A DNA stretch of 24,000 nucleotides from positions 23,000 to 46,999 of the forward strand of contig JAZLGC010000002.1 of assembly GCA_045616125.1 (NCBI GenBank). Direction: 5' to 3'. This stretch comes from Treponemataceae bacterium. GTDB taxonomy: Bacteria; Spirochaetota; Spirochaetia; Treponematales; Treponemataceae. Under the pieces are notes generated by a model. The model was given only the letters and a program-made list of their open reading frames with translations. It ran no database searches and was not told the DNA's origin. Both the position numbers and the translations under genes were made by a program. The stretch's first letter is position 1, and the number at the start of each line of letters is the position of its first letter. Below are positions 45 through 13,192 of this stretch, in pieces.

Positions 45-1538
45 ATGGGGTATCAGGCTCATACTATACCTATGACAACGCCAGAAACAAAAGTTACCAT
101 TTCCACCGGACTTGGCCCCATAACAGGTCTGGATGCCGGTTCCCATTACCAGTTCCGCGGCATTCCGTATGGGATTGCAAAACGATTTGAATATGCCACC
201 CCGGTGCAGCGCTGGACCGACGCCGGAACACCAGAAGACGTACCCTTTGATGCAACCCGATGGGGAGATACCTGTCCCCAGAAACGCTGCTGGTATGCTC
301 ATCTGGAACAGCCGGAACGAATGTTCTATCACCGGGAATTCCGTGACGGTGTTCCCTACACATACAGCGAAAACTGTCTGAATCTGAACGTGTATATGCC
401 ATCACCTGCGGTATCAGACGCCGCTTCGGCCAACCAGACGGCAACTGATTCGGCCACCCAGACGGCAACTCCCCCGCGAAGTGCCAGACTCCACCCGGTC
501 ATCGTATTCATACACGGCGGTGGCTTTGATTCAGGCGCCAATTATGACAGCGCCATTCACGGAGAACGCTTTGCTGCTGACGGCTATGTCTTTGTCAGCC
601 TTACCTACCGGGTAGGCGTTCTCGGTTATGCCACCCACCCCGAAATAGCCGATGCAAACAACGGCCGTGACGGCAACTTTGGCTTGGATGACCAGTACAC
701 TGCTCTCTGCTGGATTCGCGACCACATTGCAGACTTTTCCGGCGACCCCGACAATATTACGGTCATGGGACAAAGTGCCGGCGCCATCAGCATTCAGTAT
801 CTGTGTTTGAGTAAACGCTGCCAAGGCCTTTTCCAACGGGCATTCATGATGTCAGGCGGCGGTAAGTTTCCTGACTTTGCCCTGCCCCGCACTACCGGCA
901 GCACCCACGAATACTGGCTTGATGTCATGACCACTGCCGGCTGTACCACCTTTGACCAGTTCAAAACCCTGGACATCAAAAAAATCTACGATGCCCTTGA
1001 AACAGTAAAAAGCCGCCGGAAGGACAACACCTACAACACCATGCCTGTTATTGACGGCTACCTTATTGAACAGCCTGTTCAGGAACTGATCCGGCAGCCA
1101 TTGGACATTCCCTACATGGTTACCTACACCAACAACGACATGTTCGCATTCCTCATGGCGCGGATTGGTCATGAATACGCCCGCCATACCGGTGCCTGGC
1201 TTGGTAACTTTGACGTAAACGCTCCCGGTTCTGACAACAACAAAGCCTTTCATTCCTGCGACATCCGCTACTGGCTGGGAACACTGGCAGACAGCCACCG
1301 GCCGTACACAGATTCTGACCGGGAACTTTCTGACCTGTTAATCCGCTATCTTGAAAACTTTGCCACCACGAGTAACCCAAATCAAGGCCCCCATGCCGGG
1401 CTACCCCGCTGGCCCCAATCCACAGCCAAAAGCAGGAAATCACTGCATCTGGTATCCAACACAAAAAAAATCCGCATGACCCATCCCAATAACCTTAAAA
1501 TGCTTTGGAACATGCTTACCAAGGGAGATCCCAAATGA
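45..1538 (+). CDS. Carboxylesterase/lipase, type B family (alpha/beta hydrolase)
   Basis: 497-aa ORF with the oxyanion-hole motif HGGGF (VIVFIHGGGFDSG) and the nucleophile elbow GQSAGA (GxSxG), both typical of PnbA-like type-B carboxylesterases. There is no clear SD before ATG 45, so the in-frame ATG at 72 is an alternative start. Confidence 0.85.
   Translation: MGYQAHTIPMTTPETKVTISTGLGPITGLDAGSHYQFRGIPYGIAKRFEYATPVQRWTDAGTPEDVPFDATRWGDTCPQKRCWYAHLEQPERMFYHREFRDGVPYTYSENCLNLNVYMPSPAVSDAASANQTATDSATQTATPPRSARLHPVIVFIHGGGFDSGANYDSAIHGERFAADGYVFVSLTYRVGVLGYATHPEIADANNGRDGNFGLDDQYTALCWIRDHIADFSGDPDNITVMGQSAGAISIQYLCLSKRCQGLFQRAFMMSGGGKFPDFALPRTTGSTHEYWLDVMTTAGCTTFDQFKTLDIKKIYDALETVKSRRKDNTYNTMPVIDGYLIEQPVQELIRQPLDIPYMVTYTNNDMFAFLMARIGHEYARHTGAWLGNFDVNAPGSDNNKAFHSCDIRYWLGTLADSHRPYTDSDRELSDLLIRYLENFATTSNPNQGPHAGLPRWPQSTAKSRKSLHLVSNTKKIRMTHPNNLKMLWNMLTKGDPK
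425..472 (+). repeat. In-frame 24-bp tandem duplication inside the esterase gene (encodes SANQTATD/SATQTATP)
   Basis: ttcggccaaccagacggcaact (425-446) and ttcggccacccagacggcaact (449-470) differ at one base. The period is 24 nt (8 codons). It sits just upstream of the HGGGF motif in a Thr/Ala/Gln-rich segment. Confidence 0.8.
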
Positions 1539-3898
1539 AATTCAGACATCAATTTGAACTGAAAGAAGCAACCCCTACCTATCGAATCTACAAAACCGAC
1601 GGCATTACCATCCGTCTTGATTTTTTTAACCATATGATCAGGGTAGCCATCCTTCATGACAGCATCAATCTGCTTCCAACCTGGACTGTCCAGCCAAGAC
1701 GCCGGCAGGATCCGGAAACGGGATACGGATTTGTCAACACGCCACAGGCAGGAAGAAACAAGCTGTCCTGTGACGATATGGAACAGCTGCCACCAGAGGT
1801 ACTGACAACAGGAAAAGGACAGGAATCCTTTACCATTGATGATGTCACAATCAGCATCGATTTGTTCAATTTCCGAATGAAATATGAACGAAACGGCAAA
1901 CTGCTGTTTCAGGACCGGGAATACATTGCCTATAATTTTGACGGCGAACTGGGAGATGGCAGCTGTCACTACGTTACCCGTGAGCCTGATGAAGAAATAT
2001 TCGGACTGGGGGATAAAACAGGACCGGTAAACAAAAACAAACGGAGTTACCGTCTTGAAGCAGGAGATGCCATGGGCTTTGATGCACGCTCTTCTGACCC
2101 CTTATACAAACAGCTGCCATTCTACATGTGCCGGAATTCAGCCGGCTGCTATGGCATGTATTATGACACCTACAGCAACGGTACCATGAACTTTGGTGCA
2201 GAAATCAACAATTACTACGCACCGTTCAAAAGCTTCAGCTGCGATGAAGAAAACCTGGTGTATTACGTGATTTTTGGCGATATTCCCCAGATTTTGCAGC
2301 GATTCAGCGCCCTAACCGGACCAGTTGCATTCCCGCCAAAATGGACCTTTGCCTACTGTGGCAGCACCATGAGTTATACTGATGCTCCTGATGCCGATAA
2401 CCAGCTGCGTACCTTCCTGCAGTTATGTCAGAAGCACGGCATTACGCCCGGCGGTTTTTACCTCAGTTCCGGCTATACCCAGATTGGCAAAAAGCGCTAT
2501 GTATTCCACTGGAACACCGACAAGGTACCGTCACCGGAAGGTCTGGCATCGTACTTTGCAGAAAACGGTGTCGATTTTCTTCCGAATGTAAAACCGGCAT
2601 TTCTGGTAAATCATCCCCTGTACAACCAGATTGCAGACAAGGGGTGGTTCCTTCATTACAGTGACGGAACACCTGCCGTGTTCCCCTTCTGGGATGACTA
2701 CGGCAGTTACCTGGACTTTACCAATCCGGATGCCTTTGCATTCTGGTCCGATTGTGTAAAGAGACAGCTTGTAGATAAAGGCTATCTGAATATGTGGAAC
2801 GATAACAACGAGTACGATATCCATGACAAGGCCGTTCTTGCCCACGGGTTCGGAAACGGTCCCGTTCCAGCCCATCGCATCAGACCGCTGTTCAGTTTTT
2901 TAATGACCCTTGCCAGTTGTGAAAGTCAAAATCAGAGCCGCCGCATTTCATCAGTCTCACGCTGCGGCATCGGCGGTCTTAGCCGTATGGCTACTACCTG
3001 GACCGGCGACAACAACACCTGTTTTGATGATTTCAGGTATAACCACCGCATGGCCATGACAATGAGCTTAAGTGGCTTTTACAATTTTGGACAGGATATC
3101 GGCGGCTTTGCCGGTAACCGGCCGGAACCGGAACTGTTCCTCCGCTGGATTCAGTACGGCATCTTTACGCCACGGTTTGTTCTGCACAGCTGGAACAGTG
3201 ACGGCAGTGCTACCATGCCCTGGCTGTATCCGGAGCTGATTCCAACCGTAAAGAACCTGTTTGACCTGCGGAACAGACTGATTCCCTACCTGTACACCCA
3301 GGCCTACGAAAGCGCCAAATCCAACAAGCCCATCATTTATCCGGTATTTCTTGAGCAAAGCAATTATGATACAGAAGCTGATTGTTTTATGTTTGGTAGC
3401 CGTATTCTGGCCGTTCCTGTTTTTGATAAAGGGGTTGAAACCGTAACCGTAACGCTGCCGGACACCGCCGAATCCTGGTATCCCAGCCCTCAGAGCACCA
3501 CCACAGGATCCCTGAGCCTGTCGAAGGGTCCCACCACCATTACACTCCCCGCCCCAACAGATGCAGAGCCCGTATGGTTTGTAAAAGCAGGCAGTGTTCT
3601 TCCGCTGGCATCAGGCACCCCGATTCTCAGAAACCGGTCGCTGGACAACATCACGTTTACTGTCTATCCCCTTACACAGGGAAGTTTTACCGCAACTTAC
3701 CTGGATGATGATGGCGTCAGCTGGCTTACAGAAGACAACCATCAGGTCATCACCTTCACCGTAGATTGTACGGCGGATACGGTAACAGTCCACGTACAAA
3801 GCACCACCGCTTCAGGAACTCCGCTGCCACCCCCTGAACCAGAATCACTGAACCTTGCACTGCACCCCAGCGACCCCCGCAAACTGGTAATTGCCTGA
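1535..3898 (+). CDS. Glycoside hydrolase family 31 (alpha-xylosidase/alpha-glucosidase-like)
   Basis: GH31 signature around the nucleophile Asp (NMWNDNNEY, compare WxDMNE) and the acid/base region (TWTGDNNTCF), plus GQDIGGF. I chose ATG 1535 (MKFRHQ...) over the track start 1505. It has an AAGGGAG SD at 1521-1527 and overlaps the esterase stop as ATGA. Confidence 0.88.
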   Translation: MKFRHQFELKEATPTYRIYKTDGITIRLDFFNHMIRVAILHDSINLLPTWTVQPRRRQDPETGYGFVNTPQAGRNKLSCDDMEQLPPEVLTTGKGQESFTIDDVTISIDLFNFRMKYERNGKLLFQDREYIAYNFDGELGDGSCHYVTREPDEEIFGLGDKTGPVNKNKRSYRLEAGDAMGFDARSSDPLYKQLPFYMCRNSAGCYGMYYDTYSNGTMNFGAEINNYYAPFKSFSCDEENLVYYVIFGDIPQILQRFSALTGPVAFPPKWTFAYCGSTMSYTDAPDADNQLRTFLQLCQKHGITPGGFYLSSGYTQIGKKRYVFHWNTDKVPSPEGLASYFAENGVDFLPNVKPAFLVNHPLYNQIADKGWFLHYSDGTPAVFPFWDDYGSYLDFTNPDAFAFWSDCVKRQLVDKGYLNMWNDNNEYDIHDKAVLAHGFGNGPVPAHRIRPLFSFLMTLASCESQNQSRRISSVSRCGIGGLSRMATTWTGDNNTCFDDFRYNHRMAMTMSLSGFYNFGQDIGGFAGNRPEPELFLRWIQYGIFTPRFVLHSWNSDGSATMPWLYPELIPTVKNLFDLRNRLIPYLYTQAYESAKSNKPIIYPVFLEQSNYDTEADCFMFGSRILAVPVFDKGVETVTVTLPDTAESWYPSPQSTTTGSLSLSKGPTTITLPAPTDAEPVWFVKAGSVLPLASGTPILRNRSLDNITFTVYPLTQGSFTATYLDDDGVSWLTEDNHQVITFTVDCTADTVTVHVQSTTASGTPLPPPEPESLNLALHPSDPRKLVIA

Positions 3899-3914
3899 CA
3901 GTTTCAAGAAAAAG

Positions 3915-4134
3915 GTAGGGTTGTATTGAATACCAATAGAACGTTTTTTGAAAAACCTATCGACGTGCTGATAACGTGCAAAACCGCTCGCTAGCGTCGC
4001 TACAGGCGAAGCCCGGTAAAGAAACTATCGTTCGTCCATGCTCACCGCATGGACGCCGGGCTTCGACAGTTTTTGCACGTTCTCATCCCATCTACCGGTT
4101 TTTCAGTTTCTCATCATTTTCAATACAACCCTAC
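3915..4134. repeat. Copy A of a ~220-bp rod-like imperfect palindromic repeat (MITE-like or structured-RNA-like element)
   Basis: Outer 16-bp perfect inverted repeat gtagggttgtattgaa (3915-3930) / ttcaatacaaccctac (4119-4134). Inner stems are tgaaaaacc/ggtttttca, aacgtgcaaaa (3973-3983)/ttttgcacgtt (4071-4081) and cgaagcccgg/ccgggcttcg. The apical hairpin is tccatgc-tcacc-gcatgga. The core is about 89% identical to 6866-6955. The element fills the whole gap between two convergent stop codons. Confidence 0.85.
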
Positions 4135-4141
4135 GTTTTGT

Positions 4142-5569
4142 TTACCGGCCGCGTGATACCTTCAGTTCAGCGTACAGTTTTTCAAGATTCTTCTTATTCA
4201 GGCTGTAGCAGAAATTCAGCAGGAACCACATAACAGCCAGCACAATGGCAGGTACCAACGTGGCCATGGTATACAGCCGTGAAGTTACTTCAGCAGTCTG
4301 TACCGTAGCATCAACATTATATCCGATTACCGAAAGCAGCACCGGAACACCAACACCAGCCAGCGTCTGTCCCAGCTTACGGGTAAACGAATAAACAGCG
4401 TAACTGGTACCTTCTTCACGACGGCCAGTCTTGTTTTCATGGTAATCAATAACATCCATAACCAGCGCCCACACTTCCAGAATCAGGAATGTCTGACCGG
4501 CGCTTGACAGGAACAGCAGGGCCATGAATACGGTTGAATTTGCTGCCAGCGGAGTAAATCCGATTGCATACATAACAAAACTGATAATTGCGGAAAGAAG
4601 CAGACCAAAAGAACACAGTTCTTTTTTACCCCATTTGCGAACCAGTTTTCCTACAACAGGCAGGAACATGGCCATAGGAACATAGGTACATACGGTTACC
4701 AGACCGTACAGCCCAGGTTTCTGGTAGTAATTCTTGAACAGATAGTTATAGGTTGTCTGGGTGTACATCTGGAACGCAATCAGCAGCATGGAAACCAGAC
4801 ACAGGAAAATAAACGGTGGGTTCTTCAAAAGGTCGCCAACGGTACGGAATACATGCATTTTTGCAGGCTGTCCGTTCTCTGGAATATCCTTATCAAGAAC
4901 AACAATACGTTCCTTTGTCCCCTTAAAATGCAGCCAGTAAATAAGAACGCTGAGCACTGCAATACAGGCTACGGCAACAGTCATCTTGTTTGGATCCAGT
5001 GCTTTTGCCGTGGTACCGTCTGCCAGAGTAACAGTGGTATACACAACCATAGGCAGAACAATCATTGAAGGAATATTACCAAAGCCGGCACCAACAGAAC
5101 GCCATACAGAAAGTGCACTGCGTTCAGCAGGATCATCAGTAATAACAGAAGCAAGGGAACCGAATGGAATATTTACACCGGTATACATCATGCCGTACAG
5201 AATGTAAGTTATGTAGGCAAATACCAGGTAGCCGGAAGGACTCAGGCCCGGAATTTTTACGAACATAAGGACAGCAGAAATGGCCAGAGGAATGGAAGCT
5301 CCCATTACGTAGGGACGGAAGCGGCCATATTTGGTAGGACGCCGGCTGTCAATAAAACCACCCCACATAGGGTCATTAATGGCATCCCAGATACGGGCAA
5401 CCAGCATAAGCATCGTAATTGATGCCAGCGGAATGTGCAGGCAGTCCGTATAGAACATGGTTAAAAACGATGAAATCAACGAAAAGGTCAAAACGCCACC
5501 AAAGTCACCGCATGCGTATGCCATCTTCTCTTTTGTCGTAATTCCCGAAGTCGGGCTCTTTTCAGACAT
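4142..5569 (-). CDS. Glycoside-pentoside-hexuronide (GPH) family sugar:cation symporter (MFS superfamily)
   Basis: Multi-pass membrane protein. The N-terminal region KEKMAYACGDFGG...FLTMFYTD...ARIWDAINDPMWGGFIDSRRPTKYGRFRPY is characteristic of MelB/YicJ/UidB-type GPH transporters. I chose ATG 5569 (MSEKSP), which has SD AAAGGAGAA 6 nt upstream. The track start GTG 5677 would add 36 aa (see findings). Confidence 0.85.
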   Translation of the reverse strand: MSEKSPTSGITTKEKMAYACGDFGGVLTFSLISSFLTMFYTDCLHIPLASITMLMLVARIWDAINDPMWGGFIDSRRPTKYGRFRPYVMGASIPLAISAVLMFVKIPGLSPSGYLVFAYITYILYGMMYTGVNIPFGSLASVITDDPAERSALSVWRSVGAGFGNIPSMIVLPMVVYTTVTLADGTTAKALDPNKMTVAVACIAVLSVLIYWLHFKGTKERIVVLDKDIPENGQPAKMHVFRTVGDLLKNPPFIFLCLVSMLLIAFQMYTQTTYNYLFKNYYQKPGLYGLVTVCTYVPMAMFLPVVGKLVRKWGKKELCSFGLLLSAIISFVMYAIGFTPLAANSTVFMALLFLSSAGQTFLILEVWALVMDVIDYHENKTGRREEGTSYAVYSFTRKLGQTLAGVGVPVLLSVIGYNVDATVQTAEVTSRLYTMATLVPAIVLAVMWFLLNFCYSLNKKNLEKLYAELKVSRGR

Positions 5570-5792
5570 ATAGTTCTCCTTTAAATCTTCCGCGGCAGCG
5601 GTCGCACACGGATGTACGATATCGCAGCTTGCGAAGCAGGATGCATGTGAAAAAATACACGGATGTATATTTTTCACGCCTCCTTATTTAGTATTTTTCA
5701 GCAACAGAATAATTGTACCATGATATTTTAAATCCATGGGAAACAGGTCACTATCAGTAAACAGATGACGCAGTTTGAACTACACTAGTACC

Positions 5793-6791
5793 ATGACCTT
5801 ACAAAATGAATTTCTGCCGTATATCTTACCTTCAAAAGATATGCGTTCCTGCTGCATCGCTGAAAACCGTATCTTCCTCCCCTGGGAAACAGCCAGTCTT
5901 CTGTATATGAATACTCATATACCCTTTGCAAAGCGGCAGGAACTTTTCAAACAACTTGCAGAACACATTGAATCCACAAATCCATCTAAAACAGAGAATG
6001 TTGCATATCCTCATATTTCAGATTTCAATGTACTGAATCAGCTGAAAAATCACATAGCCTGTGAAGAATTTCTTTTGGACAAGTTTTATGACAGCCATGA
6101 AGGCACGTATTCCTATGTAATTCACAACGAAAATGATGATTACCGCGCAGCACGATACGAATACTTCTATTCCACTGCAGAAAAAGCCAAAGTCGATGCA
6201 TTACAGGAATTGGAAAAATACCACAGAAAAGAAAATGGTGAATACGAAACCAACGAAATCCGGATTACCAGGTTTTTCATAGATAAACGTACTACTTTGG
6301 AAGGAATTTTTACACTGAAAGGAGAACTGCAATCCCTCTATTTCTGCGGAGAAAACATCCAGTCAATTCTTCCGGAAAACTTCCAGCGATATTATGACTT
6401 ACCCAATCCAGACTATTTTGCAGAAAAATATGTCCATTTACCCCACCCCTTCCGAGCCGGCGATTTTGTCCGGACCATAGGTGAAAAAGATATTGGCATT
6501 TATACCGGCGACAAAAATGACGAATCGTATCACCAAAATCAAATTCGTCTGAAAAAACTGGCATCAAATCCAAAGCTTATATTTCCTATTGATTTTTCAG
6601 ATATTTCCTGTCGTGTAGAGTACTTCGACCCAAAATTGAAGCTTTTTTCACACAGTCATCCCAGTTTGACCGATCTGGAAAAAGTAGATCTGCCGGAAGA
6701 TTTCAAATACAAAGATTTGTTTGTTACCGCCTCAGAATTACTTCGTAGCGGCGGCTCCATTGAAGCACTGCAGCAGTATCTGGATACATAG
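5793..6791 (+). CDS. Hypothetical protein (orphan, no recognisable domain)
   Basis: Long uninterrupted ORF in an AT-rich islet. The track start at 5775 is TTG; the first ATG is 5793, and neither has a convincing SD. I recognise no catalytic or family motifs. Confidence 0.6.
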   Translation: MTLQNEFLPYILPSKDMRSCCIAENRIFLPWETASLLYMNTHIPFAKRQELFKQLAEHIESTNPSKTENVAYPHISDFNVLNQLKNHIACEEFLLDKFYDSHEGTYSYVIHNENDDYRAARYEYFYSTAEKAKVDALQELEKYHRKENGEYETNEIRITRFFIDKRTTLEGIFTLKGELQSLYFCGENIQSILPENFQRYYDLPNPDYFAEKYVHLPHPFRAGDFVRTIGEKDIGIYTGDKNDESYHQNQIRLKKLASNPKLIFPIDFSDISCRVEYFDPKLKLFSHSHPSLTDLEKVDLPEDFKYKDLFVTASELLRSGGSIEALQQYLDT

Positions 6792-6796
6792 TAAAC

Positions 6797-7018
6797 GTAG
6801 GTATTAATTAACCAGCGCTCAATAAGTATTTGAAAAATCTACCGGCATGCTGGTGACTGAAAAAAACGCTCGATATCGTCGCTATTGGTGAAGCCCGGCA
6901 TAGAAACTATCGTTCGTCCATGCTCACCGCATGGACGCCGGGCTTCAACAATTTTTTTCAGTCCCCATCCTGCCTCCCGATTTTTCAGCTTCCTCAAATA
7001 ACGTTAATTAATACGTAC
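6797..7018. repeat. Copy B of the ~220-bp rod-like imperfect palindromic repeat
   Basis: Outer inverted repeat gtaggtattaattaac (6797-6812) / gttaattaatacgtac (7003-7018) with 1 mismatch. Inner stems are tgaaaaatc/gatttttca, gactgaaaaaaa (6855-6866)/tttttttcagtc (6952-6963) and tgaagcccgg/ccgggcttca. A 45-nt stretch (6902-6946) is identical to 4020-4064. Orientation is the same as copy A. Confidence 0.85.
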
Positions 7019-7063
7019 AACAGTTTTACAACAGAGCGGCAAATTCCTATAAGTAAAGAGAAC

Positions 7064-7612
7064 ATGAAGATATATTTATTAGACAGAAACCCGGAAATGA
7101 TTCTCGAATGGAAGAAACAGTTTAGCAGCACTGAAGACGTTGAAATTGTTCTGGATACATTTGAGCATTTTATGGACACCCATGAAGTACAATGCATTGT
7201 GTCGCCGGCAAATTCCTATGGTATTATGGATGGTGGTTATGATGCCGCCATTACGGATTATTTTGGCATTGATCTGATGCTTGATGTTCAAAATTACATT
7301 TTGCAGAATTATTTTGGGGAACAACCGGTAGGTTCCAGTTTCATCATCGATATCCCCGGAACACGACAAAAACTGATTCACACCCCCACCATGCGGATTC
7401 CCTCACAGATTAAAGACCCGCACATAGTCTATCAGTGTATGAGAACCACCCTTATGGCGGCCATACAGAATAACGTTGAAAGCATAGTCATACCAGCTTT
7501 TGGGGCCGCTACCGGAAAAGTTCCCCGTCCAACAATTGCAAACCGTATGAAAGCCGCCTACAACCAGATACAAAATCCGCCGGTTGAACTTTCTTGGGAT
7601 GTGATTATTTGA
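7064..7612 (+). CDS. Macro-domain protein (ADP-ribose binding / ADP-ribosyl or O-acetyl-ADP-ribose hydrolase family)
   Basis: Matches the macro-domain Nx6GG[VLI]D-type motif (SPANSYGIMDGGYDAAI) and the second glycine-rich loop (IPAFGAATGKVP). Start taken at ATG 7064 (MKIYLLD), which has AAAGAG upstream. The track start 6920 lies inside the palindromic repeat and is rejected. Confidence 0.7.
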   Translation: MKIYLLDRNPEMILEWKKQFSSTEDVEIVLDTFEHFMDTHEVQCIVSPANSYGIMDGGYDAAITDYFGIDLMLDVQNYILQNYFGEQPVGSSFIIDIPGTRQKLIHTPTMRIPSQIKDPHIVYQCMRTTLMAAIQNNVESIVIPAFGAATGKVPRPTIANRMKAAYNQIQNPPVELSWDVII

Positions 7613-7634
7613 AATTAAGAAGGAGCTTATATTC

Positions 7635-8018
7635 ATGCCGGACACAAGACTTGAAGATTTTTTGACAAACAGTTTCTCTGTTACCGGTGCGTACATTGCA
7701 TTGAATACTACGCTAAAGAATTTTTTAGTGCTGGTACACAATAATTCCAGACTGCGCCCTTCATTTCAGAAAGCATCTGAACAATCACTGATTGCAGATA
7801 TACAGTCTATTTCTGACAACAATACCATACTCGGCGACGGCAACAAGCTGATGGAGCAAAAATCCGAATTTCTCAAAATGATCAAGTCCACCCACCACAT
7901 ACATTTTACAGAATCACAGAAATCGTTCTTGATAAAAATCATACAACAGTTTTACGACATCCAGACCAGAGAATTTGAACTACGTCAGCAAGAAAAATCT
8001 GAATTACAAGCACCGTAA
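7635..8018 (+). CDS. Hypothetical protein (127 aa)
   Basis: Strong SD AAGGAG at 7619-7624, 22 nt after the macro-gene stop, so co-oriented and probably co-transcribed. No recognisable domain. Confidence 0.6.
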   Translation: MPDTRLEDFLTNSFSVTGAYIALNTTLKNFLVLVHNNSRLRPSFQKASEQSLIADIQSISDNNTILGDGNKLMEQKSEFLKMIKSTHHIHFTESQKSFLIKIIQQFYDIQTREFELRQQEKSELQAP

Positions 8019-8032
8019 GGAAAATACCTTAA

Positions 8033-8248
8033 ATGACTGAATGGACACTACGGAAACCCGAAAGAGAATTATACCAGCTTGTTCAAAGACTTCGCTTAAC
8101 AGCTGCTACAATCGAAACATTCATGGTAACCGGAGGAAAAGCAGGTCAAGTCCAAAAATACGCATTTAAATCGAGTTTTGTATCCCTTGCGTACGGATCA
8201 TCGGCACAATTTCTTGTAAAAAGGCCGGAATACCCTGAAATTTGCTGA
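8033..8248 (+). CDS. Hypothetical small protein (71 aa)
   Basis: AAGGAAA sits ~10 nt upstream of the ATG, 14 nt after the previous stop. No recognisable domain. The short length makes the call tentative. Confidence 0.4.
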   Translation: MTEWTLRKPERELYQLVQRLRLTAATIETFMVTGGKAGQVQKYAFKSSFVSLAYGSSAQFLVKRPEYPEIC

Positions 8249-8372
8249 AATGTCATGCAATATACTGAAACACGTTAAAAATGCCAAAAGCAGCCAGTTT
8301 GTGCAAAAAATCATCCGAAACATGCCTGAAATACAGGGTGAAAAAGTGTGTTATGTAAAAAAAACGCTATAT

Positions 8373-8408
8373 AAAAAAAGCTCCGAAACCGAAGTCTCGA
8401 AGCTTTTT
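8373..8408. terminator. Bidirectional intrinsic terminator
   Basis: 11-bp stem agctccgaaac (8379-8389) / gtctcgaagct (8394-8404). Read on the minus strand it is GCUUCGAGAC-UUCG-GUUUCGGAGC with a UUCG tetraloop. It is flanked by A7 (8373-8379) and T5 (8404-8408), so it is followed by a U-run on both strands. Confidence 0.8.
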
Positions 8409-8412
8409 GAGG

Positions 8413-8486
8413 TGGACGATGAGAGGATCGAACTCCCGACATTCAGGGTCTAAACGAGAGGCTGGAAGGACTTTAGCTAATCGTCC
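8413..8486 (-). ncRNA. tRNA-like RNA gene (aberrant or degenerate tRNA; UAG at the anticodon position)
   Basis: Minus-strand sequence: GGACGAT-TA-GCTAAAGTCCTTCCAGC-C-TCTCG-TTTAGAC-CCTGA-ATGTC-GGGAG-TTCGATC-CTCTC-ATCGTCC-A(CC). The 7-bp acceptor stem is perfect and the T arm and TTCGATC loop are canonical. The D loop lacks the conserved GG, and the anticodon stem pairs at only 3 of 5 positions. It has its own promoter and terminator. Confidence 0.5.
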
Positions 8487-10982: not shown

Positions 10983-11621
10983 ATGGTGAAATTATTCAAG
11001 AAATTTGATATTTCCAATCAGGCAGTAATCTGTATGGCCATTGTATACGGATTCAATATGCTGGTGTATGAAGCAACACGCCTTACTTTTACCGATGCAA
11101 CCATTTTCCATAACATGTCCATCAGCCTTGATTCCAAGATTCCTTTTGCCCCTTTCATGATTCTCTTTTACGGTGGCTGGTTTCCTTATCTGGTTATTAA
11201 TTTTTACCTGATTACCAGTAATACAAGAGACAAAGCCATACATTTTGTCAGCGCCCACGTTCTGGGTGAATTTATTGCAGGCATCATATTCATGACTTAT
11301 CCCACGATGATGGAAAGACCAGTGGTTACCGGTAATGATATTTTTTCTCTACTGGTAAAGTTCACCTTTTTTATGGATTCACCAAACAATTTATTTCCGT
11401 CAATTCACTGCTTTGCCGCGACGATGGCCGTTCTTGGAACCATAGGAAGGAAAGATTTACCCTGGCAATTCAGGTTATTCAACGTTTTTTTTGCTCTTTG
11501 TGTATATGCATCAACGGTTATGATTCGCCAGCACGTTCTGGTAGATATTCCTGCCGGTATCGGAATCGCCCTAGTGGGATGGTTTAGTACATACCCTTTT
11601 GTAAAACTTAAAAAAAGCTGA
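10983..11621 (+). CDS. PAP2-superfamily membrane protein (lipid phosphatase / phosphotransferase-like)
   Basis: Polytopic membrane protein with PAP2 C2/C3-like motifs PSIH (FPSIHCF) and RQHVLVD (R-x-H-x3-D). GGAG SD. Last gene of the lipid operon. Confidence 0.6.
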   Translation: MVKLFKKFDISNQAVICMAIVYGFNMLVYEATRLTFTDATIFHNMSISLDSKIPFAPFMILFYGGWFPYLVINFYLITSNTRDKAIHFVSAHVLGEFIAGIIFMTYPTMMERPVVTGNDIFSLLVKFTFFMDSPNNLFPSIHCFAATMAVLGTIGRKDLPWQFRLFNVFFALCVYASTVMIRQHVLVDIPAGIGIALVGWFSTYPFVKLKKS

Positions 11622-11626
11622 AGCAT

Positions 11627-11668
11627 AAAAAAATGGGGTGCACGCTAGAGTGCACCCCATTTTTTTTC
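11627..11668. terminator. Bidirectional intrinsic terminator between convergent operons
   Basis: Perfect 11-bp stem atggggtgcac (11633-11643) / gtgcaccccat (11650-11660) with loop gctaga. It is preceded by A7 and followed by T8. Confidence 0.85.
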
Positions 11669-11689: not shown

Positions 11690-13192
11690 TTACTTTGACA
11701 GTTTATACCGTGCAGTACTCATGGTATGACCATCGCTATAAACGTCAAACCACACTTCTTTTTTATCTGCAGTATCAAGAGCTGCATAAAACTCTTTCAG
11801 ATTAGTAACCTTTACATCATTAACTGCAGTAATTACATCACCAGTCTGCAGACGCATTGCTGCAGCAGGAGATTTGCTCTGAATATTCGTAACAACAACA
11901 CCCTGAACTTTTTTATCAGTAATTTTCAGGTTATCGCGTAAATCAGAAGTTAATGGATATGCAATGAAACCAGGCCACAAGTTCGAATCATTTGATACCA
12001 CAGTATCATTTCTTGCTTCGATGGTGGCTTTTACCGTCAATTCCTTGCCGCCACGGATTACCGTAAATTCAGCAACTTCGCCAACGGTTAAATCACCTAC
12101 ATCACGTACCAGCTGGTCCACATCTTTTACTGCTTTACCATTGAGAGAAACAACATAATCACCAGCCTGTAAGCCGCCTTTTGCAGCAGGACTTCCCTGG
12201 AATACCTGAGAAGCAAAAGCACCACTCTTTCCGGCAACACCAAGGGCTTCTTTATATTCGTCATTAACAGAAACAAGAGAAACACCCATCCATCCGTATG
12301 TTACTTTTCCGTCCTTAATGAATGAATCAATGGCACGCTTGATATTATTAATCGGAATACTGAATCCCAACCCTTGAGAGCCACCTGAAGAAGATGCAAT
12401 CCAGGTATTAATACCGACAATTTCTCCGTATATATTAACCAGCGGACCACCAGAGTTACCCTGGTTAATGGCCGCATCAGTCTGAATAAAATCACTGATA
12501 TTTCCAATGGTTGCACCGGAACGTCCCAAGGCACTTACAATACCCTGTGAAACAGATGACGCGTATCCCAGTGGGGTACCCATGGCAAAACAGATATCGC
12601 CAACCTGAAGAGCATCAGAATCTCCCAGTTTTGCTACTGGCAGTTCATCATCTGATTCAAAAGAAACCAGTGCAATGTCCTTCCGTTCGTCAGCACCTAC
12701 CAGTTCGGCAGGAATTTCTGTACCGTCATACAATTTTACGGTTATTTTTGAAGCTTCTCCTGCAACATGGTAGTTGGTTAAAGCATAATAGGTTTTCTTG
12801 TTTTTTCGTACAATGACACCAGAGCCTAAGCCTGATGTTTCATATTCCTGGGTTTCTTCCTGCAGACCATCGCCAAAGAAGAAATTAAACGGGAACCCGT
12901 TCATAGAACTTACCTGGCGTGTTTTTGTTTCAACAACGTCAACTTCAACAACAGAAGGAAGAACCTCGGCAGAAACAGCACGATTTGCCTGCTGAAGGGC
13001 TTCTATAACAGACAGCGCCTGTGTTGGAATCTGTACAGCGGGACTAGTATCGCCAAAGACAGTATTGCCGGTTCTACGGGCAGATTCAGCATCGGCAGCT
13101 ACGGTTCCTGATGAACAGGATAATGAAAAAAGAACAAATGAGAGAGCGGCAACAGCTAAAGTAGTACCAGCAATTTTTGTCCAACGTTTCAT
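11690..13192 (-). CDS. htrA: HtrA/DegP/DegQ-family periplasmic serine endoprotease with two PDZ domains
   Basis: N-terminal signal sequence. Catalytic triad contexts are NYHVAG, KDIALV and GNSGGPLVN. Two C-terminal PDZ-like repeats (GAFASQVFQGSPAAKGGLQAGD...; GVVVTNIQSKSPAAAMRLQTGD...). Confidence 0.9.
   Translation of the reverse strand: MKRWTKIAGTTLAVAALSFVLFSLSCSSGTVAADAESARRTGNTVFGDTSPAVQIPTQALSVIEALQQANRAVSAEVLPSVVEVDVVETKTRQVSSMNGFPFNFFFGDGLQEETQEYETSGLGSGVIVRKNKKTYYALTNYHVAGEASKITVKLYDGTEIPAELVGADERKDIALVSFESDDELPVAKLGDSDALQVGDICFAMGTPLGYASSVSQGIVSALGRSGATIGNISDFIQTDAAINQGNSGGPLVNIYGEIVGINTWIASSSGGSQGLGFSIPINNIKRAIDSFIKDGKVTYGWMGVSLVSVNDEYKEALGVAGKSGAFASQVFQGSPAAKGGLQAGDYVVSLNGKAVKDVDQLVRDVGDLTVGEVAEFTVIRGGKELTVKATIEARNDTVVSNDSNLWPGFIAYPLTSDLRDNLKITDKKVQGVVVTNIQSKSPAAAMRLQTGDVITAVNDVKVTNLKEFYAALDTADKKEVWFDVYSDGHTMSTARYKLSK

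Follow-up and report, generated by a model that had tools for sequence, protein, structure and literature searches.

A modular foldback repeat, probably of low copy number, in intergenic spacers of a rare Treponemataceae lineage

Within a 24,000-nucleotide (nt) stretch of a Treponemataceae bacterium genome (hereafter, the window; assembly GCA_045616125.1, contig JAZLGC010000002.1, positions 23,000–46,999), a palindromic element of about 220 nt fills the spacer between two convergent sugar-utilization genes and recurs nearby. We favor, at a probability of roughly 55%, its interpretation as a low-copy, lineage-restricted and modular foldback DNA repeat, similar in kind to MITEs (miniature inverted-repeat transposable elements) and REPINs, whose arms are kept complementary by DNA-level processes and which doubles as a terminator-like hairpin. 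Comparison of copies shows that the element is a discrete unit, present or absent as a whole, that it occurs in either orientation at one site, that its copies recombine, and that hairpin modules within it are gained and lost. The comparison draws on related loci from two metagenome-assembled genomes (MAGs). L001 and L002 belong to the "Treponemataceae bacterium" MAG JAZLJW01, which is 95–97% identical to the window over the same locus; L004 belongs to MAG GCA_045616005.1, is syntenic with the window, and carries a transporter gene 85% identical to that of the window.

The first copy, A, lies in a 243-bp spacer (3899–4141) bounded on the left by the stop codon of a GH31 gene (open reading frame [ORF] 1505..3898, Pfam Glyco_hydro_31) and on the right by that of a convergent MFS_2/GPH transporter gene (ORF 4142.., minus strand). 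Every paired segment listed in the original prediction, along with the spacer, the apical hairpin and a 23-nt one-sided bulge, was found where it had been placed (Table 1); a second one-sided bulge, TAAAGAAACTATCGTT at 4017–4032, had been missed. The claim that these segments form a single long imperfect hairpin is also supported. As RNA, copy A (3905–4141) folds into one rod with a minimum free energy (MFE) of −91.1 kcal/mol, compared with −52.9 ± 4.1 for dinucleotide shuffles (z −9.2), and copy B, described below, has an MFE of −86.6 (z −9.9); none of 200 shuffles matched the real value for either copy. The minus strands fold at least equally well (−103.2 kcal/mol for A and −93.0 for B), a slight advantage that derives from conserved mismatches that are pyrimidine-pyrimidine on the plus strand and not from strand-biased G·U pairs.

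The recurrence predicted at 6797–7018 was borne out, in that A and B lie on the same strand and share a 164-nt ungapped repeat with 80% identity. The central ~45 nt are identical, and identity between the two copies is 0.89 in the core, 0.70 in the arms and 0.48 in the outer part. Copy B begins 5 nt past the stop of a gene encoding a 338-amino-acid (aa) protein and finishes 45 nt before a Macro-domain gene, within an islet of ~2.6 kb (window ~5753–8375) situated between the transporter and tRNA genes. Besides copy B and these two genes, the islet contains a 127-aa gene and ~380 nt of non-coding sequence with repeated CTGAAA motifs. The 338-aa protein has no Pfam match, and the Macro-domain protein has a weak DarG-like match (E 0.0014). 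The islet is missing from the syntenic L004, which rejoins the window beyond it at ACTATCA/AAAAAAAGCTCC. Since copy B resides in an islet with no L004 counterpart, it probably came from elsewhere, which implies that B-type copies exist, or once existed, in other genomes.

At the GH31/transporter spacer, the orthologous copies differ in orientation. L004 (11409–11602) carries the element in the same spacer and between the same flanks (A-tract, element, GTTTT), reversed with respect to the window. The copy at the end of L001 (1–119) is reversed too, its A-type right arm being joined via the 16-bp stem to the GH31 flank. The L004 element is without the 23-nt apical hairpin, a clean indel, and its outer stem has a different sequence that is perfectly paired (GTACGGTTGAAATA with TATTTCAACCGTAC); the outer stem of B is GTAGGTATTAATTAAC. 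A comparison of filled and empty sites, proposed in the original prediction as a check on mobility, yielded one clean case. Beside copy B in L002 sits a whole extra copy, ends included, which we call A′ (L002 3065–3285). It is A-type, ~94% identical to window A, has its own outer stem, and lies exactly between a flank ending in CATAGTAAACG (...GTAAACG) and the body of copy B; at this position (6797), the window has just GTAG.

Exchange between copies is evident at L002 85–401, next to GH31, where the left arm is 0.89–0.90 identical to B and 0.65 to A, and the right arm is 1.00 identical to A. This left arm differs from both B copies at about eight positions and thus represents a further B-type lineage, although the join falls within ~170 nt common to the large copies, so that an assembly chimera is possible. 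Overall, the distinct forms number at least three for the B-type left arm and three for the A or L004 type. In both large L002 copies, including the B orthologue, the 23-nt bulge is additionally interrupted by ~97 nt inserted between CGCT and CGTCGCTA.

Across these differences, pairing is retained to a striking degree. In a four-copy alignment, 97.1% of cells are paired, and 20 of 72 pairs have changed on both sides across three arm types, with only 2 changed on one side. Shuffled controls gave 9.0 ± 2.0 double-sided changes (0/500 reached 20), and sliding the partners by 1–3 columns gave at most 4. The changes include 8 of the 17 pairs of the outer stem and 9 of the 18 pairs of the middle stem. 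Nearly all pairs are Watson-Crick (68–69 of 71 scorable pairs in the window copies, 57 of 59 in L004; 0–2 G·T per copy), and T·C and C·T mismatches recur at five positions in most or all copies. Moreover, the 8-bp mini-palindrome in the 23-nt bulge has changed symmetrically, from CGCTAGCG to CGATATCG (central CTAG to ATAT). Read as a hairpin loop, the changed positions would be unable to pair, a small hint that DNA symmetry has been copied here and not RNA pairing. Template switching at quasi-palindromes and gene conversion between inverted arms are established mechanisms, and the observed pattern leans toward what is expected of an inverted repeat in which the arms correct each other by these means; it is also compatible with selection acting on a folded RNA or on single-stranded DNA. 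In this family, a small natural case, Watson-Crick double changes account almost entirely for the upkeep of pairing, alongside inversion and the gain or loss of modules, and it bears on the question of what share of the "covariation" seen in multi-copy palindromes stems from DNA-level template switching as opposed to RNA selection.

We propose that the element is a set of nested modules. These would comprise an outer stem that varies in sequence yet always pairs with itself and has the foot GTAS...STAC; the stem TGAAAAA/TTTTTCA, which is conserved; a middle stem that is imperfect and contains invariant pyrimidine-pyrimidine mismatches; the GC clamp; and two conserved one-sided bulges, with a 23-nt apical hairpin and a ~97-nt triple hairpin resembling the TD-2 RNA motif as optional additions. 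Complementarity of the arms may be kept mainly by template switching or gene conversion within the element, in addition to recombination between copies, and the same DNA-level processes could invert the interior and create or delete perfect hairpins. Spread to new sites would then depend on a trans-acting enzyme or on recombination, possibly at G-TA-C.

The termini inform this last step. Each copy has a terminal inverted repeat of 14–16 bp that differs between copies save for the GTAS/STAC foot. The form G-TA-[body]-TA-C fits A, B and L004: GTAG or GTAC stands at the 5′ foot on both strands of these three copies, and GGAG on one side of A′. REP elements classically carry a 5′ GTAG. As far as their sequence goes, the ends could reflect either duplication of TA at a GTAC target or recognition, on the hairpin, of a GTAG foot like that of REPs; a TA duplication would itself be palindromic and hence indistinguishable from stem sequence. 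As conservation is lowest at the ends, a classical transposase that binds terminal repeats seems unlikely, and a structure-recognizing enzyme or a recombinational route is more plausible.

Several observations weigh against a mobile DNA repeat. No clean target-site duplication was found: a TA duplication fits A and B, but A′ (GA...TA) has one mismatch, and the empty site in the window reads GTAG, not GTAC. The gradient of conservation (0.48 at the ends vs. 0.89 in the core) is the reverse of that in a classical transposase-recognized MITE, and the conserved one-sided bulges and mismatches fit a constraint at the RNA level, or one imposed by protein binding, equally well. Copy number is very low, with all copies at two sites ~2.7 kb apart and none elsewhere in ~100 kb of related sequence. 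No transposase or recombinase domain was detected in the window genes scanned or in an extra 4 kb of L001. Finally, faulty assembly or a mixture of strains could be part of the explanation for the chimera and for the presence of the GH31 end on two contigs.

The distribution of the element is correspondingly narrow. A covariance model (R1) built from the four copies, an approach suggested in the original prediction, recovered from the ~100 kb only the two window copies, three in L002, the partial copy at the end of L001 and one in L004; further copies exist in related MAGs, as anticipated for a repeat family, but within the reach of these searches the family is tiny, limited to two neighboring sites in three MAG lineages that are closely related. 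An exact search with the apical-hairpin 21-mer, a narrow probe given that this hairpin is an optional module, matched 1 of 185,579 GTDB species-representative genomes (JAZLJW01), and there solely the known sites. JGI metagenomes yielded 0 matches to a 20-mer and a single match to a gapped GC-clamp pattern; the latter is a terminator matched by chance in an organism of high GC content (L011), not a true relative. IMG/VR scans and blastn against plasmids and phages likewise gave 0 matches, and no element accompanies the 338-aa gene's homologues (L003, L012, L013) or those of the transporter (L005–L010, L014). The lineage itself is rare in public data, the 90% cluster of the transporter having two members among 15 billion proteins. 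Rfam 15 returned nothing for either window copy at the gathering threshold or at E values up to 10; over the whole window, only tRNAs pass, and the best match in the element region is a chance snoRNA match (E 6.4). On balance, we regard the family as a previously undescribed group of low-copy, lineage-restricted palindromic intergenic repeats in a rare gut Treponemataceae clade.

Among described repeats, the element shares most with REPINs and REP-BIMEs, which are non-coding and intergenic, form a long hairpin from two inverted halves, keep pairing while sequence drifts, are assembled as mosaics of modules, bear a short foot motif (GTAG/GTAC in our case), and often act as terminators or mRNA-stabilizing hairpins. 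REPs and REPINs are mobilized by RAYT Y1 transposases. The element differs from them in the length of its rod (220 nt vs. ~35–100 nt), in occupying 2 sites as opposed to tens to hundreds, and in conserving its center where REPs conserve their ends. ERIC/IRU, Yersinia YPAL, Neisseria Correia/NEMIS and pneumococcal RUP elements are similar as 100–170-bp, ORF-less intergenic repeats that form rod-like hairpins when transcribed, lie in either orientation, and show presence/absence polymorphism between strains; such repeats can influence termination and mRNA stability. Compared with these families, which are not Rfam models, our element has terminal repeats that vary between copies, a very low copy number, and a putative TA duplication. 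The lacto-2 motif is another multi-copy motif with covariation and no known role (PMC1950547, Weinberg et al. 2007), but it is a Firmicutes family with hundreds of copies, to which the element has no detectable similarity (no Rfam match). In kind, then, its nearest counterparts appear to be REPIN/BIME elements and the palindromic intergenic repeats of the ERIC, YPAL, Correia and RUP types, and it belongs to no named family by their defining features: Rfam yields no match, terminal repeats are not shared between copies, a target duplication is unproven, and the copy number is not high. The original prediction had recognized no named family either, and this holds for the window copies; the larger variants in the sister MAG, however, carry a TD-2-like module (41.7 bits, below the 48.7-bit gathering score) and are considered below.

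The original prediction offered a MITE-like DNA element and a structured non-coding RNA as alternatives, and here the evidence leans toward DNA-level behavior (inversion, chimera, module gain and loss, Watson-Crick compensation) without settling the choice. As an RNA, the element would be a cis-acting 3′ untranslated or intercistronic structure or a trans-acting small RNA, with rod and internal loops selected, for example, as a platform for a protein or RNase and with the TD-2 module as an optional RNA domain. We think this unlikely, though it has much to commend it: covariation is strong, one-sided bulges and mismatch positions are conserved across arm types, stems are modular and of variable length (an RNA-motif criterion in Weinberg et al. 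2007, PMC1950547), related copies carry a module matching the candidate small RNA motif TD-2, and both copies lie where transcription would cover them. Against it, G·U pairs are nearly absent (0–2 among 59–71 scorable pairs per copy), almost all changes being double-sided from one Watson-Crick pair to another. Inversion relative to the flanks at an orthologous site means that the transcribed strand is not kept constant, the two strands differ little in how well they fold, and the symmetric change in the bulge mini-palindrome affects positions that cannot pair in a hairpin loop; nor did we find a promoter-like site in or beside the element, or a match in Rfam. We rejected a riboswitch or ribozyme, and likewise a coding sequence.

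Rather unlikely, in our estimation, is an overgrown bidirectional terminator that was locally duplicated, with neither mobility nor a family and with the extra copies generated by local recombination or gene conversion. All known copies do lie within about 3 kb of the transporter gene, the apical 21-mer is found solely at these sites in the one matching GTDB genome, A- and T-tracts flank copy A in both species, and the GC clamp followed by a T-run constitutes a terminator-like core. Simple duplication sits poorly, however, with ~70% identity between the A and B arms and ~48% between their outer stems when the core is 89% identical and ~45 central nt are unchanged, with the diversity of arm types listed above, with the probable arrival of copy B from elsewhere, and with an A′ that includes an outer stem of its own and whose limits coincide exactly with the ends of the element. 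Furthermore, MAG assemblies tend to lose repeats. An inverton, in which a promoter or terminator would be flipped by an invertase acting on the 16-bp terminal inverted repeats, could account for opposite orientations at one site (window vs. L004 and L001), possibly with both in one metagenome (L001 vs. L002). It is very improbable and was rejected on the basis that no promoter-like site exists inside the element and no recombinase domain was detected in the scanned window genes or in L001; in addition, two genes end at this site, leaving a promoter switch with nothing obvious to act on, the nearly palindromic interior would be little altered by a flip, and the copies have different terminal repeats. 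Treponema is known to harbor chromosomal integrons, and an attC-like or other site-specific recombination site that folds as single-stranded DNA would share the imperfect palindrome with conserved unpaired or mismatched bases and the location of copy B directly after an islet gene. We find this scarcely credible and rejected it as well: the ends (GTAGG...CCTAC) contain no RYYYAAC/GTTRRRY core sites, a conserved center with variable ends is the reverse of attC, the length exceeds the usual attC range, and the window contains no integrase and no cassette array.

Returning to the favored foldback DNA repeat, its sequence context suggests that it probably also serves as a terminator-like hairpin. 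AAAAAG lies on one side of the basal stem of A and GTTTTGTTT on the other (the opposite strand reads CTTTTTCTT), so that T-rich tracts follow it on both strands (CCCTAC-GTTTTGTTT and CCCTAC-CTTTTTCTT), the U-tract beginning no more than 1 nt past the stem (TTTTGTTT on the plus strand, TTTTTCTT on the minus strand). The U-rich tracts described in the original prediction are thus real for both strands of copy A but are not a general property, as copy B has no such flanking tracts. Instead, the GC clamp of B, extended by ATTG·TGAAG pairing, runs straight into T7 on the plus strand; in A, the clamp is followed by ACAG-TTTTT, giving both copies a terminator-like core. A terminator scan, which counts up to 20 stem pairs with loops of 3–8 and has the rod outside its range, found no other terminator in the GH31/transporter spacer. 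Ordinary terminators occur elsewhere. At 11627–11666, between the convergent genes 10983..11621 and 11690..13192, a perfect A7-GGGGTGCAC...GTGCACCCC-T7 palindrome forms a textbook bidirectional terminator, in contrast to the 220-nt rod, and in L014 the homologous transporter gene is followed by a simple hairpin terminator. Taken with the retention of the flanking tracts in L004 despite inversion, these observations lead us to infer that copy A is a bidirectional terminator and 3′-end hairpin. When transcribed from the flanking genes, the rod would form a long hairpin, which at the GH31/transporter site could both terminate in either direction and protect 3′ ends, and the GC clamp and T7 of copy B could end the transcript of the upstream 338-aa gene. 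In these respects, copy A resembles bidirectional intrinsic terminators, which sit between convergent genes with an A-tract, hairpin and T-tract, and its flanking tracts are conserved between species. The rod is, however, ~10 times the usual hairpin size, has conserved loops and bulges, and recurs without flanking T-tracts (B, A′), in agreement with the earlier view that it is a discrete repeated unit and not an ordinary terminator.

The ~97-nt inserts in L002 link the element to a described motif. They align to all three hairpins of TD-2 RNA (RF03162), including the loops AUGGAU and CACGGAUG, and score 41.7 and 40.8 bits, just below the gathering score of 48.7, with E 4e-5 in a local search. 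The window copies show no TD-1 or TD-2 signal in Rfam even at E up to 10. Through the larger sister-MAG variants, the element therefore has some connection to motifs already described. Both TD-1 and TD-2 occur in multiple copies, have no assigned role, and were reported solely from Treponema denticola (PMC1950547, Weinberg et al. 2007). TD-2 and our element are alike as multi-copy Treponema hairpin motifs, but TD-2 was not described as nested in a larger palindrome (PMC1950547). A motif known only from T. denticola now appears in a gut bacterium distantly related to it, where it is inserted, in some copies and not in others, within a different repeat; this offers a usable clue to the nature of TD-2. 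The L002 equivalent (1869–1950) of a hairpin cluster upstream of the transporter start (window 5590–5690, Table 1) is also a weak TD-2 match (31.4 bits, E 0.077); the cluster, ~100 nt long, is wholly missing from L004, and an Rfam scan of window 5400–5900 was empty. A derivation of the TGAAAAA/TTTTTCA stem by expansion of the third TD-2 hairpin was considered but is not supported: the small forms give no TD signal.

We speculate further, although we consider it improbable, that the rods are a new class of hairpin-recognized mobile element, or a modular structured RNA, with a core of GC clamp, two one-sided bulges and fixed pyrimidine mismatches, outer stems that need only pair, and a role as landing pad for TD-2 modules. 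If this were true, the TD-2 (and TD-1) "small RNA" motifs would be insertable hairpin modules and not RNA genes, mobilized through single-stranded DNA by a HUH/RAYT-like or other enzyme. The TD-2 link and the center-conserved, end-variable architecture are the more interesting residue of the analysis.

Table 1. Coordinates of the foldback element copies, their segments and a nearby hairpin cluster in the window
Feature	Position	Strand	Sequence	Remark
Copy A, complete ~220-nt foldback element	3915–4134	+		R1 covariance model, 258.9 bits; fills convergent GH31/transporter spacer
Basal/outer stem of A, 16 bp	3915–3930 × 4119–4134		GTAGGGTTGTATTGAA × TTCAATACAACCCTAC	
Outer stem of A, left arm	3915–3930			Begins GTAGG
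Outer stem of A, right arm	4119–4134			Ends CCTAC, then GTTTTGTTT
Subterminal stem	3949–3957 × 4097–4105		TGAAAAACC × GGTTTTTCA	Near-invariant in all copies
Middle imperfect stem, left arm	3958–3983			Pairs with 4071–4096; holds conserved pyrimidine-pyrimidine mismatches
11-bp stem inside middle arm	3973–3983 × 4071–4081		AACGTGCAAAA × TTTTGCACGTT	
One-sided 23-nt bulge	3984–4006	+		Mini-palindrome CGCTAGCG in A, CGATATCG in B
GC clamp	4007–4016 × 4056–4065		CGAAGCCCGG × CCGGGCTTCG	8 of 11 pairs never vary
Second one-sided bulge	4017–4032	+	TAAAGAAACTATCGTT	Conserved in all copies
Apical 9-bp hairpin module	4033–4055	+	CGTCCATGC-TCACC-GCATGGACG	Absent from L004 element
Three-hairpin cluster upstream of transporter start	5590–5690	+		Two loops CACGGATG; outside the rod, same hairpin-module repertoire
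Copy B, second complete element	6797–7018	+		R1, 237.5 bits

With respect to coding potential, all six frames of the element are broken by stops or open only across the element, and a search of its concatenated six-frame peptide against 5.8 billion proteins found no protein and no spurious ORFs over further copies. Two mechanically called ORFs in the window overlap the copies and are almost certainly artefacts that could mislead gene callers: one (6920–7612), which shares the reading frame of the Macro gene, starts at an ATG within B's apical hairpin, and the other (3976–4233) starts at a GTG in the left arm of A. The listed start of the transporter gene (GTG 5677) crosses the upstream hairpin cluster and is probably an artefact too, the likely true start being ATG 5569.

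An unrelated rod was encountered in L014, a locus of MAG GCA_045628025.1, where a ~236-nt rod-like palindrome (11740–11975; MFE −118 kcal/mol, z −13.2) has a GC content of 0.45 in an AT-rich locus. Directly after it, seven tandem 23-nt repeats (CCAGACCCAGCGAGAAAAGAAAG, 11968–12130) reiterate the terminal motif of the rod, and a 151-aa "gene" has been called across the rod. An abundance of MITEs has been reported in spirochaetes, Treponema included (PMC11602168), and together with the L014 rod this makes long foldback elements look recurrent in these genomes. For annotation, the implication is that where spacers in these gut spirochaetes are unusually long and gene-free, they contain structured repeats that give rise to spurious ORFs, broken MAG assemblies and, probably, transcript ends.

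Additional features were noted in the surrounding genes. At the edge of the islet, a degenerate tRNA-like sequence (8413–8486, minus strand) scores 33.9 bits in Rfam and receives no ARAGORN call. L004 has an intact tRNA gene in tandem duplicate (63.5 bits each) to which its 3′ half corresponds; its 5′ half has been replaced, and it might be the scar of an integration at a tRNA gene. The transporter (4142–5569) has two relatives at 80–85% identity, one of them in the syntenic MAG; the other named homologues among the closest listed (about 60–77% identity) are all non-spirochaete, mostly from Lachnospiraceae, Oscillospiraceae and other Clostridia, which suggests that this sugar transporter was acquired by horizontal transfer. 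Lastly, a near-perfect 22-nt direct repeat with 24-nt spacing (TTCGGCCAMCCAGACGGCAACT) lies at 425–470, inside a carboxylesterase gene.

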